Of a DNA stretch of 64,000 nt, positions 3,810 through 13,707 are shown in pieces. The translations under genes were made by a program, and so were the position numbers. Source of the DNA: a virus; IMG/VR virus record IMGVR_UViG_3300035181_002344, one strand, 5' to 3'. Below the pieces are notes generated by a model. It saw nothing but the letters and a program-made list of their open reading frames with translations, made no database searches and was not told the DNA's origin. The number at the start of each line of letters is the position of its first letter. Position 1 is the stretch's first letter.

Positions 3810-4103
3810 TTATCTTACTACATCTCCTACTTTATAATTAGTATCATGAGATATAGCGACAACATAACCATTCAATTTTGGATCAAATATAGCAACAGCG
3901 CCTACCGTATGAGCATATTTATGGATAATTACGGCGGCTACGGGCAAACTTGCTGGCCCGTTGATCTTCAAAAGCGGCACACCAATAATATGCGGAGCGT
4001 TTGCGGCGACATATTTAACGATCTCATCGTTACTTGCGGGGTCGCCGAACCCGATTGTAAGAATGTTAGTGTCTTTGTCGAAGTTAAGATTATAAACTGC
4101 CAT
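3810..4103 (-). CDS. csx3: Csx3/Crn3-like cyclic oligoadenylate ring nuclease (candidate anti-CRISPR)
   Basis: 97 aa; LKINGPASLPVAAVIIHKYAH...VAIFDPKL..YVVAISH matches the recalled Csx3 pattern (G-P, H, FDPxL, VVxxSH). Confidence 0.75.
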   Translation of the reverse strand: MAVYNLNFDKDTNILTIGFGDPASNDEIVKYVAANAPHIIGVPLLKINGPASLPVAAVIIHKYAHTVGAVAIFDPKLNGYVVAISHDTNYKVGDVVR

Positions 4104-4377
4104 TTTGTACCTCCTTTTTAATTGTTATTATTGAATTCCACAATTGGTTCTATGCATTAAAGCCGCCCTTTTTGGGGCGGCATCTATTGGTTTACAGACA
4201 AAAAAGCCGCGGGAATATCTCTATCCTTCCCTATCTGCTTAAATAAAAAAGCCATAACTACATAACAATCCCTGTACAATCACAAAAAAACAGAGATCTG
4301 TAGCTATGGCTATAGGGCAAGGAGATGCCATTTTCAATCACATAGCTTTCTCAGGGATAATGCGACGTCAACGATGA

Positions 4378-4471
4378 CCAACTCCGCGAGGCGGAGCCGA
4401 GCGGCAACGATCTTACGCCGGCAACGTGCGACGCGGAGCCGCGGAGGGACGACGCGGCGGAGCGGAGCTGG
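4378..4471. other. GC-rich structured element with four GCGGAGC motifs
   Basis: GCGGAGC at 4391, 4433, 4457 and 4462; CGGCAACG twice; closing inverted repeat 4378-4387/4462-4471. Confidence 0.55.
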
Positions 4472-4547
4472 CTAATATTAGTGCATGCGTATACGATATT
4501 AACGATGTTTCTAGCGATTAAAGCTTTCATTTCAACCTCCATAGATT

Positions 4548-4572
4548 AAAAAAAAGCCCTCGTAAGAGGGCT
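4548..4572 (-). terminator. intrinsic terminator downstream of the RNA polymerase gene
   Basis: AGCCCTC/GAGGGCT hairpin plus a U tract on the minus strand. Confidence 0.75.
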
Positions 4573-4581
4573 AATAACCGA

Positions 4582-7652: not shown

Positions 7653-8429
7653 TCATTCAACCCAATCTATCGTGAAATTTGGAAGCGTTTTTGCAGCTTC
7701 TTTTATCACCTCATGCATCTCTGGTGACATTGCTCTGTCATACGAGAATAGACAGTCGTCTGATAAAAAGACAGTTAAATCGCCATCACCTTTAATGAAG
7801 AAATCGGTCAATTCTGTCTTAACCGTCAGATAATATTTCTTTCTGAGGTCGATATTATCAGAAGTCCATACAATTTCGTGTATGGTCTCTTCGGAATTTT
7901 CAATTACATCGATAGAGATGATGGTTCCGTTGATTCTACGCTTACTAACTACTACGCCAGTTGGCGTACAGCTTGTTACAATCATAGAAACAATGTCACC
8001 AGAATTAAGAAGCATAAATGGAATCAATCTGTCATTTTCATCAACGCCATAATCACAGTTCCAAATCTTCGTCGAAATGACTTCTGGCATCCGGATGATT
8101 TTTATGCCCAGTTCTTCGAGAAAATCATACTCCTTTCTTGGAGGAGCAATGATTAGTTCGAATTGACGAATATAACTGAGTATTTCTTCATATTGAGCAA
8201 CTTCTGTTATGCCAATTTCCGGATAGGCGTCTTTAAAATATACAAATTCGCCGTATCCAAAATCGTCGGCAATATATTCATTACCACAACCGTCATTGTT
8301 GTGGTAAGAGAAATCAAATACCTCACGACTATCTGTAAATCCGCACCCACAACTATAAGCACCACCATATTGGTGTGCTAATTCGCTATATTGACTAGCA
8401 GATAAACCGATGAATGATAAAGTTTTCAT
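7653..8429 (-). CDS. hypothetical protein with CxCG...GCGxEY motif
   Basis: start moved to ATG 8429 after the leader RBS; Cys motif shared with 9160..9471. Confidence 0.7.
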   Translation of the reverse strand: MKTLSFIGLSASQYSELAHQYGGAYSCGCGFTDSREVFDFSYHNNDGCGNEYIADDFGYGEFVYFKDAYPEIGITEVAQYEEILSYIRQFELIIAPPRKEYDFLEELGIKIIRMPEVISTKIWNCDYGVDENDRLIPFMLLNSGDIVSMIVTSCTPTGVVVSKRRINGTIISIDVIENSEETIHEIVWTSDNIDLRKKYYLTVKTELTDFFIKGDGDLTVFLSDDCLFSYDRAMSPEMHEVIKEAAKTLPNFTIDWVE

Positions 8430-8435
8430 AATATT

Positions 8436-8545
8436 CTCCTTGCCCATTTTGGGCGATTTTTACCCTACAAAAGCCATATCACTCGATATGTTAAACTCGG
8501 GTTAATTGTTTCGTCAGCTATTTTTATAGTGGGCCTACTTCCACT
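8436..8545 (-). promoter_or_regulatory. conserved structured 5' leader, copy A
   Basis: hairpin/pseudoknot, A-tract, UAGCUGACGAAAC, GAGUUUAA stem-loop, GCCC/GGGC hairpin, AAGGAG. Confidence 0.75.
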
Positions 8546-8550
8546 TATTA

Positions 8551-8598
8551 GCTCCCGCGCCCGACTTGAACGGGCAACCAGCCTTACTGGGGCGGGAA
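8551..8598 (-). ncRNA. anticodon-less tRNA mimic, copy 1
   Basis: UUCCCGC-C-CCAG UAAGG CUGG-UU-GCCCG UUCAAGU CGGGC-GCGGGAG-C. Confidence 0.8.
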
Positions 8599-8603
8599 AG
8601 AGA

Positions 8604-8975
8604 TTATGACCGATGAACAATATAAAGGTCGGGGATAACATATTCTTCGCCCCTAACCTTTATCATTTTATATCGTTCATCAATCTCATCTACCTGCATA
8701 CTTGAATTCTCTCCCATTATCTCAATACTGCCATTATCTCTTATTATGACAGCAGAGATCACGGGGTTTAATAATCTGACAATTCCCCTAAACATCGGTT
8801 GACCTTTACGATCAACCTTATTCAAAGGAATTTCTTCGATTATGTCAGCCTCCCAAATCTCATCTTCTCTAACGAGTTTGAGATTTTCGAAGGCCGGAAA
8901 GACAACTCTTCCATTTCGGAAGATCGGGTCGCTCGTGAGCCTCCCGAACTTGTCTCTCTTTATTTTAAATATCAT
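8604..8975 (-). CDS. hypothetical protein (beta-rich, possibly OB-like)
   Basis: ORF track; preceded by leader copy B with RBS; fold is a guess. Confidence 0.7.
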   Translation of the reverse strand: MIFKIKRDKFGRLTSDPIFRNGRVVFPAFENLKLVREDEIWEADIIEEIPLNKVDRKGQPMFRGIVRLLNPVISAVIIRDNGSIEIMGENSSMQVDEIDERYKMIKVRGEEYVIPDLYIVHRS

Positions 8976-8981
8976 AATGAA

Positions 8982-9091
8982 CTCCTTGCCCTTCTGGGCG
9001 ATTTATGTCCTACGAAAGCCACGTCATCTAACGTGTTAAACTCGGACTTATGGTTTCATCAGCTATGGTTTATAGTGGAGCCTATTCCACT
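8982..9091 (-). promoter_or_regulatory. conserved structured 5' leader, copy B
   Basis: same architecture as copy A, with compensatory stem changes. Confidence 0.75.
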
Positions 9092-9096
9092 TTCTA

Positions 9097-9144
9097 GTTC
9101 CCACGCCCGACTCGAACGGGCAGCTGGCCTTTCCAGGGCGGGAA
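9097..9144 (-). ncRNA. anticodon-less tRNA mimic, copy 2
   Basis: UUCCCGC-C-CUGG AAAGG CCAG-CU-GCCCG UUCGAGU CGGGC-GUGGGAA-C. Confidence 0.8.
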
Positions 9145-9159
9145 AGAGATAAGCAGAGA

Positions 9160-9471
9160 TCAATCCCAGATCAATACTGGGATTGCCAATTGCTTTTCTA
9201 TTATCTCACCAGCGATGTCGCCTCTTTTAACAACGACGACATTATATTCGCCTCTTATTGAGGCGTTAACGATATTATCTATTATATCGTCGTCGTTTAT
9301 AATGACCACATCATATTCACATCTGCGGCCAATATATTCGTAACCGCATCCGTGTGGTGTTTGTTCCTCGTGTGCTGCGCCACAATCGCAGACCCAGCGG
9401 TTTGCAAAGTGGTTATCGAGGAAATTAATTAATTTAATAGATGGTTCGAAGTTGATAACTAATGATTTCAT
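9160..9471 (-). CDS. hypothetical protein with CxCG...GCGxEY motif
   Basis: ORF track; leader copy C with RBS upstream. Confidence 0.7.
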   Translation of the reverse strand: MKSLVINFEPSIKLINFLDNHFANRWVCDCGAAHEEQTPHGCGYEYIGRRCEYDVVIINDDDIIDNIVNASIRGEYNVVVVKRGDIAGEIIEKQLAIPVLIWD

Positions 9472-9476
9472 AACAT

Positions 9477-9585
9477 CTCCTTGCCCTTTCGGGCTATTTT
9501 TGTCCTACTAAAGCCACGCCACTCGGCATGTTAAACTCGGACCTAGAGTTTCGTCGGCTATTTTTAACGCGGGCCTACTTCCGCG
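9477..9585 (-). promoter_or_regulatory. conserved structured 5' leader, copy C
   Basis: CGCGG AAGUAGGC CCGCG-UUAAAAA-UAGCCGACGAAAC...GUCC GAGUUUAA...GGAC...GCCC GAAA GGGC AAGGAG. Confidence 0.75.
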
Positions 9586-9607
9586 ATCAATTCTATAATT
9601 GGTTCGA

Positions 9608-10795
9608 TTATGTCAACTTATGGAAGGCCTCTACAAGACCTTCCGCAATACTATCGATAAGGCCAACGTTAACTCTATAAACGTACATAACCCTACCGTT
9701 ATTTACTGGCATCCATTCAGCTTTTGGACTACCAGAATTATGAGCATAAGTATCCATATAAATCCATGTGGATTTTGGTGATATCTTATGCTGCATTAGA
9801 TGGCCTATGCCATCGCCGTCACCAATATAGAGAACATAGTCGAATTTATCGTATATTCTCTGCTGATCAATTGACTGATCTTTGTTTTCATCTATTATTT
9901 CGCCATTTCCATTTGACGCATAATAGATGTCGACATTGATATCTTTGGCGAATTTTGCTAATGCTTGGGCGATCTTTTTCGTAGCACCCGAGAATGCGGC
10001 ACATGAACCGCTCTCATCATTTGTGATGAGAATCTTTGGTCCCGTACTCATCCGCCAAGGATCATATACTGCAGGTAGCGGATTTCTATTTGTTGCCCGC
10101 AGTATTTCGTATTTCAAAGGATTCATTTTCTCTTCTTCAATTGTGGGTAATCCTTTCAAACCCCACAATTTAGCCAACGTTTCAACACAAATCATTACTT
10201 CGCGATCATCTACTTCGACATCGCCACCACTACCAACAGATGTGGCCGATGACTTGTGTTGTTTGTTGACCAATTGAAGTTTTGCATCGGGATGTTCGTC
10301 AAGATATCTCTTGTAGCTATCCCGATAATACTTCTTTTCGCGTCTTTCCTTTTTCTTCTTATTGAAAGAGTAAGACGCAACCTCTTTCATCATGGCCTTT
10401 TGAACCTTTTGATAATTCTGGGCATCTTTACGTCCAGATTTATCTTTCGGTTCTGAAGATTTACCTTCTTCCTTGCCGTTACGTTTTTCTTGATGAGCAA
10501 CGCTATCTCCTCCGTGAGAGTCGTCGCTCATCTTATCAACAGCGTCTCTTACTTCTGCTTCTATTTCATGGAGACGCTTTTTGTTAATCTTGAATAATTG
10601 GCCATTTCCCAATTTAAGCGCCTCATCCATTGTGATGCGCTTTGGTGGCCAATTGTTTGTATCCCAAGGACTGTATTTATTGGCACCATTGATTTCGCTC
10701 AAGATGCCATCCTTTTTATCCGGCATATACTTATACAAGTATGGTTTGCCAGACTTATCCCTTAGGATAAACAGAATTTCAAAATTCGTTTTCAT
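9608..10795 (-). CDS. vWA (MIDAS) domain protein, partner of the MoxR AAA+
   Basis: ILITNDESGSC (DxSxS) and YIGDGD; adjacent to the AAA+ gene. Confidence 0.7.
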   Translation of the reverse strand: MKTNFEILFILRDKSGKPYLYKYMPDKKDGILSEINGANKYSPWDTNNWPPKRITMDEALKLGNGQLFKINKKRLHEIEAEVRDAVDKMSDDSHGGDSVAHQEKRNGKEEGKSSEPKDKSGRKDAQNYQKVQKAMMKEVASYSFNKKKKERREKKYYRDSYKRYLDEHPDAKLQLVNKQHKSSATSVGSGGDVEVDDREVMICVETLAKLWGLKGLPTIEEEKMNPLKYEILRATNRNPLPAVYDPWRMSTGPKILITNDESGSCAAFSGATKKIAQALAKFAKDINVDIYYASNGNGEIIDENKDQSIDQQRIYDKFDYVLYIGDGDGIGHLMQHKISPKSTWIYMDTYAHNSGSPKAEWMPVNNGRVMYVYRVNVGLIDSIAEGLVEAFHKLT

Positions 10796-10818
10796 TTCTT
10801 TCCTTCCTTTTTTTTCTA

Positions 10819-10865
10819 GTTCCCGCGCCCGACTCGAACGGGCCGATGGCCTACCATGGTGGGAA
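10819..10865 (-). ncRNA. anticodon-less tRNA mimic, copy 3
   Basis: UUCCCAC-C-AUGG UAGG CCAU-CG-GCCCG UUCGAGU CGGGC-GCGGGAA-C. Confidence 0.8.
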
Positions 10866-10871
10866 AAGGCG

Positions 10872-11597
10872 TTAGCAATATTCTGCTTTCAACGCCTTAT
10901 AGACGTTGAATCTGCAGATCATCTGCATTTTTGCCTTTAATGTAGAAGGATTGCTGGTATCCTTCCACAGACTGGTCCAGAAAGCAGACTCTGGAAGCCC
11001 ACTCTGGATCAGTTTTATCAACGTTGCCATCTCTATCGCAGATGGCGCCCTAAAAGCGTCATCAGCGCGAAGCGATGACAAGATATTCTTTACTACATTC
11101 TTGTATTCTAGCCCAGCATGCTGAAATACAAGTCGATCAGTCTCTACGCTGTAGTCGACGTAGAGTCTGATTGTAAACCTTCTAAGGGTTTCCTCCCGCA
11201 ACGTTCTACGGTTATTAGAGGTTGCGAGGAAGATTATATTTTCTGGGTGGTACTCGATTGTCCTACCCATGATTTCGATTTGGTTATCCTCGAGTAGAGG
11301 TAACAATAAATCCTCCACTCTGGAACGGCTTTTGTCGATCTCGTCCAAGAGGATGATTACTTTCTCTTGGCGAGATTTCTCCAATCCCTTTGTTAGGGGA
11401 GTTGGGAAAACTTGCAAATTACTTTCCATTACGGTCCACCCAAAGAATAATTCTTCGGGGGTAAGACTGTCCGTAATGGACATTTTAAATATCTGGCAAT
11501 TGAACTTATCTGCCAGTCTCTTAGCAGTATAAGTCTTGCCAGATCCGGGAGGACCCCATAAAAGGGCTTTCATCCCGAAATTGATTATATTGATCAT
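10872..11597 (-). CDS. MoxR-like AAA+ ATPase
   Basis: Walker A GPPGSGKT, Walker B ILLDEIDK, sensor ATSN, arginine finger LRRF. Confidence 0.9.
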   Translation of the reverse strand: MINIINFGMKALLWGPPGSGKTYTAKRLADKFNCQIFKMSITDSLTPEELFFGWTVMESNLQVFPTPLTKGLEKSRQEKVIILLDEIDKSRSRVEDLLLPLLEDNQIEIMGRTIEYHPENIIFLATSNNRRTLREETLRRFTIRLYVDYSVETDRLVFQHAGLEYKNVVKNILSSLRADDAFRAPSAIEMATLIKLIQSGLPESAFWTSLWKDTSNPSTLKAKMQMICRFNVYKALKAEYC

Positions 11598-11649
11598 TTT
11601 TTATTCCTTATCTTTTATCCGCCGCCGATTCTCCCGCTTGGCGCGGTTT

Positions 11650-12075
11650 ACTGCATCAATAAGCACCTAAATCTTATTGATGCCCTATAGCTTTAGAGCG
11701 GTTATCTACACGACTTGATGCCCGCTCTTGGGAGCACCTTTATGGCCATCATATTCGTCAAAACCCTATATCAGCAGCCCAAGAACCTACAAAATACTAC
11801 CGATATCTGGTACATGCCAGACGAATACTCATCTTCGCTCAGCTATGAAATCGCGAAGATGACGACCAGTCATAGTCACCATAGAGATATCCTTCAATAA
11901 TATCCATAATAAAGCCATAGCTCTTCTTATGGCATTCAGAAATGGGATATCCCCGTTGTTCACCTGCCCAGCGTAGAGGAGTTAAGTCGTGTTACCTTCC
12001 TCTATCAACTGCTATGTCAGCAAACAATACATAGTTCCGTTGTTTAAAGTGGTAAACGGCACCACTGGGTGGTTT
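11650..12075 (-). ncRNA. putative multi-hairpin non-coding RNA region
   Basis: no convincing ORF; inverted repeats GCATCAATAAG/CTTATTGATGC, TCATCTTCGC/GCGAAGATGA, TAGAGGA/TCCTCTA, CTATGT/ACATAG, AGTGGT/ACCACT. Confidence 0.45.
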
Positions 12076-12142
12076 TAAGGACTCATGATTCTTCTCCTTA
12101 CTTTTTGTTGTCAATCGAACACGTACAATTACGCATTCTTGA

Positions 12143-12189
12143 GTTCCCATGCCCGACTCGAACGGGCTGCCATCCTGATGGGATGGGAA
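12143..12189 (-). ncRNA. anticodon-less tRNA mimic, copy 4
   Basis: UUCCCAU-C-CCAU CAGG AUGG-CA-GCCCG UUCGAGU CGGGC-AUGGGAA-C. Confidence 0.8.
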
Positions 12190-12221
12190 TCGGCATTTTT
12201 TATTCTCTTGCCAGGAGATCG

Positions 12222-12318
12222 ACCCCTACTAAGGACACATCGTACGATGTACGACCTGTTGAACTCGAGGTTCAATTGGTTACCATGGTTTATTTTTAAC
12301 GTGAGCCTTATACACACG
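12222..12318 (-). promoter_or_regulatory. divergent copy D of the structured leader motif
   Basis: CGUG...AAGGCU CACG-UUAAAAAUA...ACCUC GAGUUCAA...UUAGUA GGGGU; no RBS/ORF attached. Confidence 0.5.
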
Positions 12319-12721
12319 GGCTTGCAGATGAATAGAAATAAATGATACAATTATAAGCCAATAATTGTATCTGAACTTTCCCGCACATACACAACATCAT
12401 GCTGATAATATGCGGGAAGAAAAAAATGGGGAAAACAGTCCAAACCAGCTCTCTTTTATTCGGCTGAGAGCCCCACCTATCTGTATGCTGATCTAAGAGA
12501 AATATCTCTTAGTTTTATTGGCTTAAATCCATTCGTAAATAGATATAAGCGCATACACAAATTCTGAGGAATCGTCGATGAAACAGCGGCCAACTTCTTA
12601 GTCAGATGTTGGCAAATATCGAGAGTAAATTGATCCCTCATTCACTGAAGTTATCTCGTTGATTAAAAAGGAGGGTGGCTCGAAACAAATTCTTTCAAAC
12701 CACCTAACCTTATATATCACC

Positions 12722-12997
12722 CAGTATCTCGCTCTCTGTGCTAAGGTTTTATTTTCAGTCAGTCGCTCTCTATTCTAAGGTCACGCTTCAGTCAGTCGCT
12801 CTCTATTCTAGAGCTGTATCTTAGCCTGTTGCTCTCACTTCTTCAGTCCGTCGATCTCTATTCTAAGGTCTCGCCTTAGTCTATAGATCTCTGCTCATCA
12901 GTCAGTCGATCTCTGTTCTAAGGTTTTATTTTTTAGTATCTCGCTCTCTATGCTAGAGTTGTATTTTGGTCTGTCAGTATCTCGCTCTCTATGCTAA
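12722..12997 (+). repeat. array of nine imperfect direct repeats, consensus YAGTmwsTCGmTCTCTrTkCTArG
   Basis: units start at about 12722, 12756, 12789, 12822, 12844, 12877, 12899, 12934 and 12975. Confidence 0.85.
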
Positions 12998-13139
12998 TAG
13001 CACCCCCAGGGGGCTCGAGAGAAATTAAAAGGATTTGTTAAAAATTGATGAGGGCAGAAATTATAAAATAAAAAAAACCGCCGAATATATATCTTTTATC
13101 CGCTAAATCCCTAAATATAAGTAATAAATAACCTTGATA

Positions 13140-13217: not shown

Positions 13218-13475
13218 ATGTCATACGCTACATTTAAAAAATATCTTAAAAACGAAGAATTTGATAAGGCTTTTATCGACTTAGCTAAAATGGTTGATAA
13301 AAGGAGTAAGAATGTTTTATTAGCAGATAGAGAATTCCATGATGCTGTGATAAAAAAAGATATGAAAACATATCGTATGATAATGGCGCAGGTTGAAAAA
13401 AGAATTTATGAAGTTTATGGAGACAAAATAAATGACCTCTTTGAAAAATACAATGCTATCTGGAAAAAAGGCTGA
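13218..13475 (+). CDS. hypothetical protein
   Basis: ORF track; first gene of the plus-strand operon. Confidence 0.65.
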   Translation: MSYATFKKYLKNEEFDKAFIDLAKMVDKRSKNVLLADREFHDAVIKKDMKTYRMIMAQVEKRIYEVYGDKINDLFEKYNAIWKKG

Positions 13476-13707
13476 TTTTTTTGATCAGATCAGAGAGATT
13501 TATGAATTTATGAAATCTGGTTATATCCAGGCTTATTGCGAATTATATAGACAAAGAGAAAAAGAGAATAAAGATCCATTAGATTGTGTATATGTAAAGA
13601 CAGCTATGAGAAAGATTTTACAGAATGGAGAACCTGAAAAAATTTTGCCCGCTTTGAAAAATTTAGTAGCAATAATAGAGAATAAACAATGGAACCAGGC
13701 TTTATAG
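13432..13707 (+). CDS. hypothetical protein
   Basis: ORF track; overlaps both neighbours (start uncertain). Confidence 0.6.
   Translation: MTSLKNTMLSGKKADFFDQIREIYEFMKSGYIQAYCELYRQREKENKDPLDCVYVKTAMRKILQNGEPEKILPALKNLVAIIENKQWNQAL

Follow-up and report, generated by a model that had tools for sequence, protein, structure and literature searches.

The early operon of an uncultured phage (IMG/VR record IMGVR_UViG_3300035181_002344) carries a repeated leader of ~115 bases that directly precedes three consecutive genes, and we analyzed this leader within a window that comprises the whole stretch of DNA at its full length of 64,000 nucleotides (nt). The genes at 7.6-12.3 kb lie on the minus strand, and the repeat is therefore read as the reverse complement of the given coordinates; all copies lie on that strand, which is the sense strand of the genes. 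A repeat search of the window identified three copies that share 99 nt at 66-79% identity and reach ~99-119 nt when their extension is included. A covariance model built from five leader copies (R1) matched them on the minus strand at 8427-8546, 8973-9092, and 9469-9586 (E values of 1e-24 to 1e-27) and recovered a divergent fourth copy, D, at 12194-12319 on the same strand (E = 0.005). An earlier, sequence-only reading of this DNA had described a repeat before three consecutive genes and a divergent copy near 12222-12318, and both were recovered by these searches. Every element that it had listed is also present, namely the first hairpin (P1), an A-tract, the string UAGCYGAYGAAAC, a domain of outer and inner stems with conserved internal loops, a GCCC/GGGC hairpin, AAGGAG, and ATG. 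Leaders and downstream genes are arranged as follows, with gene products given in amino acids (aa).

7653-8429, minus strand: 258-aa ORFan gene behind leader A; no family found
8427-8441, minus strand: AAGGAG, spacer, and ATG of the 258-aa gene (from the sequence; the same start is called in a Logan contig)
8427-8545, minus strand: leader copy A, from P1 to ATG, before the 258-aa gene (repeat family D1; R1 139.8 bits, E = 1e-26)
8604-8975, minus strand: 123-aa ORFan gene behind leader B, absent from the sister phage L016; no family found
8973-9091, minus strand: leader copy B, before the 123-aa gene (repeat search; R1 127.5 bits, E = 4e-24)
9160-9471, minus strand: 103-aa ORFan gene behind leader C; no family found
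9469-9586, minus strand: leader copy C, before the 103-aa gene (repeat search; R1 144 bits, E = 1e-27)
12214-12318, minus strand: divergent leader copy D, with P1, A-tract, and internal-loop domain only (R1 24.7 bits, E = 0.005; orthologue in L016, E = 5e-4; alignment)

Each A-type copy (A, B, and C of the window and the A-type copies of L016) terminates in AAGGAG-N6-7-ATG, and a translation start with fixed spacing is fused directly to five of the eight copies. Copy D is followed by neither a Shine-Dalgarno sequence (SD) nor an ATG, and a transfer RNA (tRNA)-like element, tD, lies directly 3' of it. In near-identical contigs recovered from three further samples the leaders are the same and contribute no variation.

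Helices and conserved junctions of the leader

Folding of five copies with RNAalifold yielded four helices with 19 pairs, 7 of them with double changes: the 5-bp hairpin P1, a 4-bp outer stem, a 6-bp inner stem, and the GCCC/GGGC hairpin P4. In the model alignment of eight copies, 95% of cells are paired and 10 of the 19 pairs change on both sides; this alignment was fitted to the model and hence leans towards structure, and the independent RNAalifold fold agrees with it. None of 500 shuffles reached the eight-copy pairing level, and sliding the partners against each other left 25-48% of cells paired. Several G.U pairs are possible only if the gene-sense strand folds. The parts of the leader are given here for copy A.

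8528-8545, minus strand: P1 hairpin with a 5-bp stem and an 8-nt loop ending in AGGC (folds; three of five pairs change on both sides)
8503-8527, minus strand: junction J1/2, formed by the A-tract and the conserved string AUAGCYGAYGAAAC (across five copies, 17 of 26 columns do not vary)
8462-8502, minus strand: domain 2, with a 4-bp outer stem, an internal loop of 8 nt and 9 nt, a 6-bp inner stem, and a variable 4-nt loop (covariation)
8442-8454, minus strand: P4 clamp hairpin with a GCCC/GGGC stem and a variable 4- to 5-nt loop (folds, alignment, RNAalifold)

Double changes in domain 2 affect two of the four outer-stem pairs and three of the six inner-stem pairs, bearing out the earlier claim that the stems covary. 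The distribution of conservation is the reverse of that in a plain hairpin: the stems vary and the junctions are conserved. Only 13 of 30 stem columns in P1-P3 and none of the four apical-loop positions are invariant, compared with 16 of 17 positions in the internal-loop strands and the 17 J1/2 columns listed above; the P4 loop varies in both sequence and length, with two of five positions invariant. An all-against-all column scan gave no further conserved long-range helix with a compensatory change. J1/2 may also resemble the 3' handles of CRISPR repeats.

Screening against Rfam 15, which the sequence-only reading had named as the check on novelty, returned no match at the gathering threshold in the whole window, and at E <= 10 gave only chance-level matches to microRNA, small nucleolar RNA, and small RNA families, none of them on the leaders' sense strand. 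Taken together, four covarying helices, sense-strand G.U pairs, invariant junctions, the lack of an Rfam match, and the fixed place before SD and ATG support the view, already put forward in the sequence-only reading, that the leader is a previously unrecognized cis-acting structured RNA.

Variable covarying stems around invariant junctions are also the classic signature of an aptamer, and tandem copies in a 5' untranslated region (5' UTR) would fit a ligand-sensing riboswitch in which P1 and its junction (domain 1) together with domain 2 form the aptamer and small-molecule binding at the invariant junctions tunes how the gene behind each copy is translated. We consider this very unlikely, as no riboswitch model in Rfam matched even at E <= 10, no expression platform is visible, P4 stands between the conserved core and the SD, and no conserved alternative pairing covers AAGGAG. 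Moreover, the genes downstream are unrelated ORFans and copy D has no adjacent open reading frame (ORF). Known riboswitch classes were rejected on the lack of both a model match and conserved pairing over AAGGAG.

The sequence-only reading had further proposed a covarying H-type pseudoknot between the P1 loop and the GCYGAY string downstream of the A-tract. The letters it gave are correct within the window (a G-C pair in copies A and C, A-U in copy B), but the covarying pairing does not rise above chance: 76.7% of cells are paired compared with 74.6% in shuffles, and 184 of 500 shuffles reach that level. Position 3 is A.G in every copy, leaving a constant core of only 3 bp (GGC:GCY), and a single compensatory change is set against two disruptive changes in the sister phage, where pair 1 is G.A in one copy and pair 2 is C.A in the other. 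A rival contact, between AGGC of the loop and the GCUU that starts the 3' strand of the internal loop, is possible in all five A-type copies, and in copy D UAAGG stands opposite CCUUA at the same place; this contact, like the pseudoknot, is indistinguishable from shuffles, and the two score alike. Given that the pairing matches shuffles and a rival contact fits equally well, a covarying pseudoknot is not established, and some tertiary contact of the P1 loop, with GCYG or GCUU as its partner, is plausible.

On the opposite (plus) strand, at 8440-8456, 8986-9001, and 9074-9091, P4 and P1 with adjoining T-runs score like intrinsic terminators, and such sites could stop antisense transcription into the early operon.

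5' edges of the leaders and turnover between relatives

A second repeat family (D3) occurs in the same operon as four copies of a ~50-nt tRNA-like element composed of a 7-bp acceptor stem, a short D-like hairpin with AGG in its loop, and a canonical T arm. Across 11 copies from four phage lineages, the fold comprises 16 pairs, is 97% paired, and shows double changes at 7 pairs; in it, the acceptor stem of 7 bp stacks on a T stem of 5 bp that carries a 7-nt loop of the UUCRA type. Neither ARAGORN nor the Rfam tRNA model calls any of these elements, because the anticodon arm is absent. The four copies, together with a promoter-like block found beside leader C, are listed below.

8547-8605, minus strand: tA, 6 nt before P1 of leader A (repeat D3; model R2 75.3 bits; covariation)
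9093-9151, minus strand: tB, 6 nt before P1 of leader B (repeat, covariation, R2)
9589-9616, minus strand: promoter-like block, TTGACA followed by ATCGAAC-N8-GAATT (motif at the syntenic site in four lineages; sequence)
10815-10872, minus strand: tE, between the ATPase gene and the gene for a 395-aa protein, with no leader after it (repeat, covariation, R2)
12139-12196, minus strand: tD, directly 3' of leader copy D (repeat, covariation, R2)

Elements tA and tB begin 5-6 nt past the stop codon of the upstream gene, and the orthologous element of L016 stops 4 nt before P1. The family is confined to the early operon; in a 155-kb relative (an IMG/VR record), a search with R2 gave only the two known copies. 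Leader C has no tRNA-like element at its 5' edge. Instead, the promoter-like block shares sequence with the end of the 395-aa gene and reaches to 1-3 nt from leader C, its end lying 2 nt before the first modelled base of the leader and 3 nt before the first paired base of P1. The motif ATCGAAC-N-GRRTT recurs at the syntenic site after the 395-aa gene in four of four lineages. Its spacing does not fit sigma-70, and the motif may therefore be a promoter read by a polymerase or sigma factor specific to the phage. Instances of the block with a spacer of N5-12 (window 9589-9608, minus strand; L016:7854-7872 and 13054-13073; L017:11280-11302; L020:3095-3113 and 9375-9393) are usually followed within 1-3 nt by the beginning of a hairpin. 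As tRNA-like elements (A and B) or the promoter-like motif (C) abut P1, leaders A, B, and C would each start where a new RNA 5' end is expected. Among the functions that the sequence-only reading had listed for the leader, protection of the 5' end and a role as translation leader gain support from these abutting elements.

Relatives of the phage were absent from GenBank phages by blastn and tblastn, and were reached only through searches with the 395-aa protein, which led to L016/L023, L017, and L020. Pattern scans of IMG/VR with two leader motifs returned only chance or coding matches, and a scan with one tRNA-like motif returned none; in GTDB genomes, a pattern scan gave 120 matches, one of which passed the stem-pairing filter, as expected by chance. 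The leader is found only in this phage and in one metagenomic relative, L016/L023, at 74% protein identity, whose copies comprise two of the A type, one of the D type, and a partial one (13443-13494) that contains domain 2 only. The more distant L017 has a tRNA-like element followed by a reduced plan of hairpin, A-tract, hairpin, and SD. At the position of leader C, L017 (11303-11667) and L020 (3114-3590) carry a different conserved 5' UTR of ~300 nt with long invariant blocks in the alignment. The narrow distribution of the leader, in two related uncultured phages, limits how general the arrangement can be taken to be.

Between these two phages, leader copies recombine and units are gained and lost, as shown by crossed domain 2 matches and by a missing unit. 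Domain 2 of copy A in the window matches the L016 copy at the C position at 39 of 41 positions and that at the A position at 30 of 41, and the converse also holds; in L016, the tRNA-like element, leader B, and the 123-aa gene are missing together as one unit. In T4-type phages, PeSL cassettes are promoter-plus-terminator DNA modules (PMC2839356). Like these cassettes, the repeated modules described here lie beside small ORFans in a plastic early region that shows gain, loss, and mosaicism between close relatives; unlike them, the phage element is transcribed into a leader that folds, and it is coupled to tRNA mimics. The parallel with PeSL-mediated shuffling (PMC2839356) would favor a primarily DNA-level element, either a promoter read by the RNA polymerase of the phage itself or the boundary of a PeSL-like recombination cassette. 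We attach a very low probability to this explanation: compensatory changes in four helices and strand-specific G.U pairs point to selection on a folded sense-strand RNA, no promoter of the sigma-70 type is predicted on the sense strand inside the leaders, recombination can be a by-product of the repeats themselves, and the invariant junctions would go unexplained.

The leader as a possible modular 5' UTR

We propose, with confidence about evenly balanced for and against, that the leader is a modular 5' UTR in which P1 caps a processed or nascent 5' end, a loop-E-like internal loop binds a factor, and a clamp hairpin precedes the ribosome binding site. Cleavage, protection, factor binding, and an effect on translation are all steps that we infer from this architecture. 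For leaders A and B, host tRNA-processing enzymes would make the 5' end by cutting at the tRNA-like element just upstream, and for leader C it would arise from initiation at the promoter-like motif. Lying at the extreme 5' end, P1 would then block 5'-end-dependent decay, the A-rich single strands might serve as landing or standby sites for ribosomes, and the invariant internal loop of domain 2 is where a protein or the ribosome would probably dock and thereby set translation or stability. P4 may insulate AAGGAG from upstream pairing, the outcome being a standard "insulated" expression cassette that could be placed before any small gene. Early-operon transcripts would in this way become single-gene messages, each protected and set for translation by its leader.

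Each part of this scheme has precedents. In mitochondria, tRNA-processing enzymes create mRNA ends by tRNA punctuation. Organelle t-elements are tRNA-shaped structures that lie in long transcripts exactly at gene boundaries (PMC1920247). The tRNA-shaped elements of the phage likewise sit at gene boundaries, with the leader starting 4-6 nt after them; they differ from t-elements in that the newly made 5' end would carry a long leader that is both conserved and structured, and cleavage in the phage is a prediction. Stabilizing stem-loops at the 5' ends of bacterial and phage mRNAs (ompA, ermC, and others), a few nt from the terminus, protect transcripts against 5'-end-dependent RNases. P1 also lies within a few nt of the expected 5' end, but in contrast to these simple hairpins the leader also has a second conserved domain and ~40 additional unpaired bases that do not vary.

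Bacterial loop E, as in Escherichia coli 5S ribosomal RNA, places a sheared A.G, a reverse-Hoogsteen U.A, and a G.G beside a Watson-Crick pair (C-GAG / GUA-G). In all eight copies the internal loop of the leader begins with the same letters as one half of loop E, C-GAG on one strand and GUA-G opposite, a match at the level of sequence. Its overall plan of helix, symmetric 7- to 9-nt loop, helix, and hairpin is similar to that of the 5S loop E region, whereas the inner half of the phage loop differs in sequence. The near invariance of this loop predicts an RNA-binding partner.

RiboJ, an insulator that combines a ribozyme with a hairpin just upstream of the SD, standardizes translation in synthetic constructs. 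Hammerhead ribozymes, for their part, flank single genes in prophages (Perreault et al. 2011, PMC3088659). The phage shares with both a processing element that would give each gene a defined 5' end, and P4 may act as the RiboJ hairpin does, but the cutter here would be a tRNA mimic or, for leader C, a promoter would take its place, and the leader matches no ribozyme model.

The precedent of hammerhead-flanked phage operons (PMC3088659), the invariant junctions between covarying stems, and a CUGAYGA...GAAAC-like string in J1/2 would together suit a new self-cleaving ribozyme that cuts the polycistronic RNA into single-gene messages. This appears highly improbable to us, since no ribozyme family matches, the hammerhead-like string lacks a stem II and has C at the U4 position in two copies, a pistol-type fold fails for want of a downstream P1-loop complement of at least 5 nt in the A-type copies, and a second cutter would be redundant with the tRNA-like element or promoter already at the 5' edge. 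As individual candidates, the hammerhead was rejected because its CUGANGA and GAAA boxes overlap without stem II and the essential U4 is C in copy C and its L016 counterpart, and the pistol ribozyme, whose P1 loop forms a pseudoknot of ~6 bp with an internal loop downstream, because the complement is missing even though a hairpin and an A-rich linker are present; neither has an Rfam match.

Location in the early operon, and a P4 stem sequence and purine-rich loop that resemble lambda boxB after an A-rich spacer, could alternatively indicate a processive antitermination site of the nut or put kind, with P4 as boxB and the GCUUU-GUA strand as a boxA-like element that together modify RNA polymerase. 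The chance of this seems to us very slim. The variability of the P4 loop (two of five positions invariant) fits a sequence-specific peptide-boxB contact poorly, the boxA consensus is unmatched, Rfam gives no match, and three sites in 1.2 kb are unlike the usage of nut or put. By eye, a lambdoid nut site, in which the boxB hairpin after boxA has a conserved GNRA-like pentaloop, was rejected on the same variable loop and missing boxA despite the boxB-like stem, and a T7 epsilon enhancer was likewise rejected by eye.

Several observations weigh against the modular 5' UTR. Three tRNA-like elements of the tE type lead straight into an SD, without a leader in between, and the leader is therefore not required after each cut. 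Copy D and the partial copy of L016 have no adjacent start codon, so that domains 1 and 2 may have an ORF-independent role, and ~40 invariant unpaired nt are more than a plain protective hairpin explains. Partition-function folding with the coding sequence added gave inconsistent SD accessibility across copies, the SD not always being open, and the covariation of the leader rests on five to eight related copies from only two phage species.

The copies that lack a start might instead point to an autonomous RNA acting in trans, such as a small RNA, a protein sponge, or a mimic of the tRNA elbow, with copy D, for example, freed by RNase P at tD and binding a host or phage factor. Copy D in both phages and the partial copy of L016 keep domain 2 without SD or ATG, the P1 loop ends in AGG(C) as do the D-like loops of tRNA mimics, and the 5' strand of the internal loop, UUCAA in copy D or UUUAA, is T-loop-like. 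We judge this explanation quite unlikely: five of the eight copies are fused to a translation start at fixed spacing, no target or partner in trans could be identified, and the T-loop/D-loop analogy is a resemblance by eye.

A broader possibility, which we regard as unlikely, is that domains 1 and 2 form an autonomous new RNA fold, be it a small ribozyme, a sensor for a ligand or a protein, or a module resembling the tRNA elbow, that works with the tRNA-mimic punctuation as a portable "insulator" on newly acquired genes. In the elbow-like module, UU(C/U)AA of the internal loop, which is T-loop-like, would receive the AGG of the P1 loop. The ORF-less copy D and the partial copy of L016 would reflect a role in trans or in processing.

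If the modular 5' UTR is correct, the early genes of this phage would be built as standard parts, each consisting of a tRNA-shaped cut site or promoter, a leader, and any small gene, and would represent a natural counterpart of the ribozyme-plus-hairpin insulators of synthetic biology. They would also offer a handle on the uniform expression of freshly acquired ORFan phage genes, which are probably anti-defence genes. The motif is new, and as it is absent from RNA databases it adds a testable family; structured leaders of phage mRNAs that are coupled to punctuation of the transcript are, as a kind, already known.

Neighbouring genes and conserved stretches

Most proteins of the phage are ORFans, and those encoded downstream of the leaders gave no match to Pfam, PHROG, or Atlas. 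A cysteine motif close to the N terminus, C-x-CG ... GCG-x-EYI, is common to the 258-aa and 103-aa proteins (weak, BLASTP E = 0.014), which may be distant paralogues. Elsewhere in the early region, a 97-aa gene at 3810-4103 (minus strand) encodes a Cas_csx3 domain (Pfam) and is preceded by an ORF-less gap of ~480 nt (4104-4581); in relatives, Csx3, SAVED, and radical-SAM genes lie nearby, and this company suggests that the early region serves anti-defence.

Between tD and a gene for a MoxR-type ATPase, the window contains a stretch of ~480 nt without a long ORF (11598-12105, minus strand) that starts with an SD and a mini-ORF of three codons. It is conserved from end to end in three lineages (L016:5330-5850; L017:8670-9145), with a column identity of 79% that exceeds that of the neighbouring proteins. 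RNAalifold predicts 129 pairs in it, 35 with compensatory changes, from only three sequences, and Rfam gives no match; we consider the stretch a candidate large structured RNA. Finally, a cluster of direct repeats of 33-51 nt (families D2 and D4) lies at 12720-12985, in the intergenic region from which the early operon runs leftward and other genes diverge to the right; the repeats look like iterons or operators.

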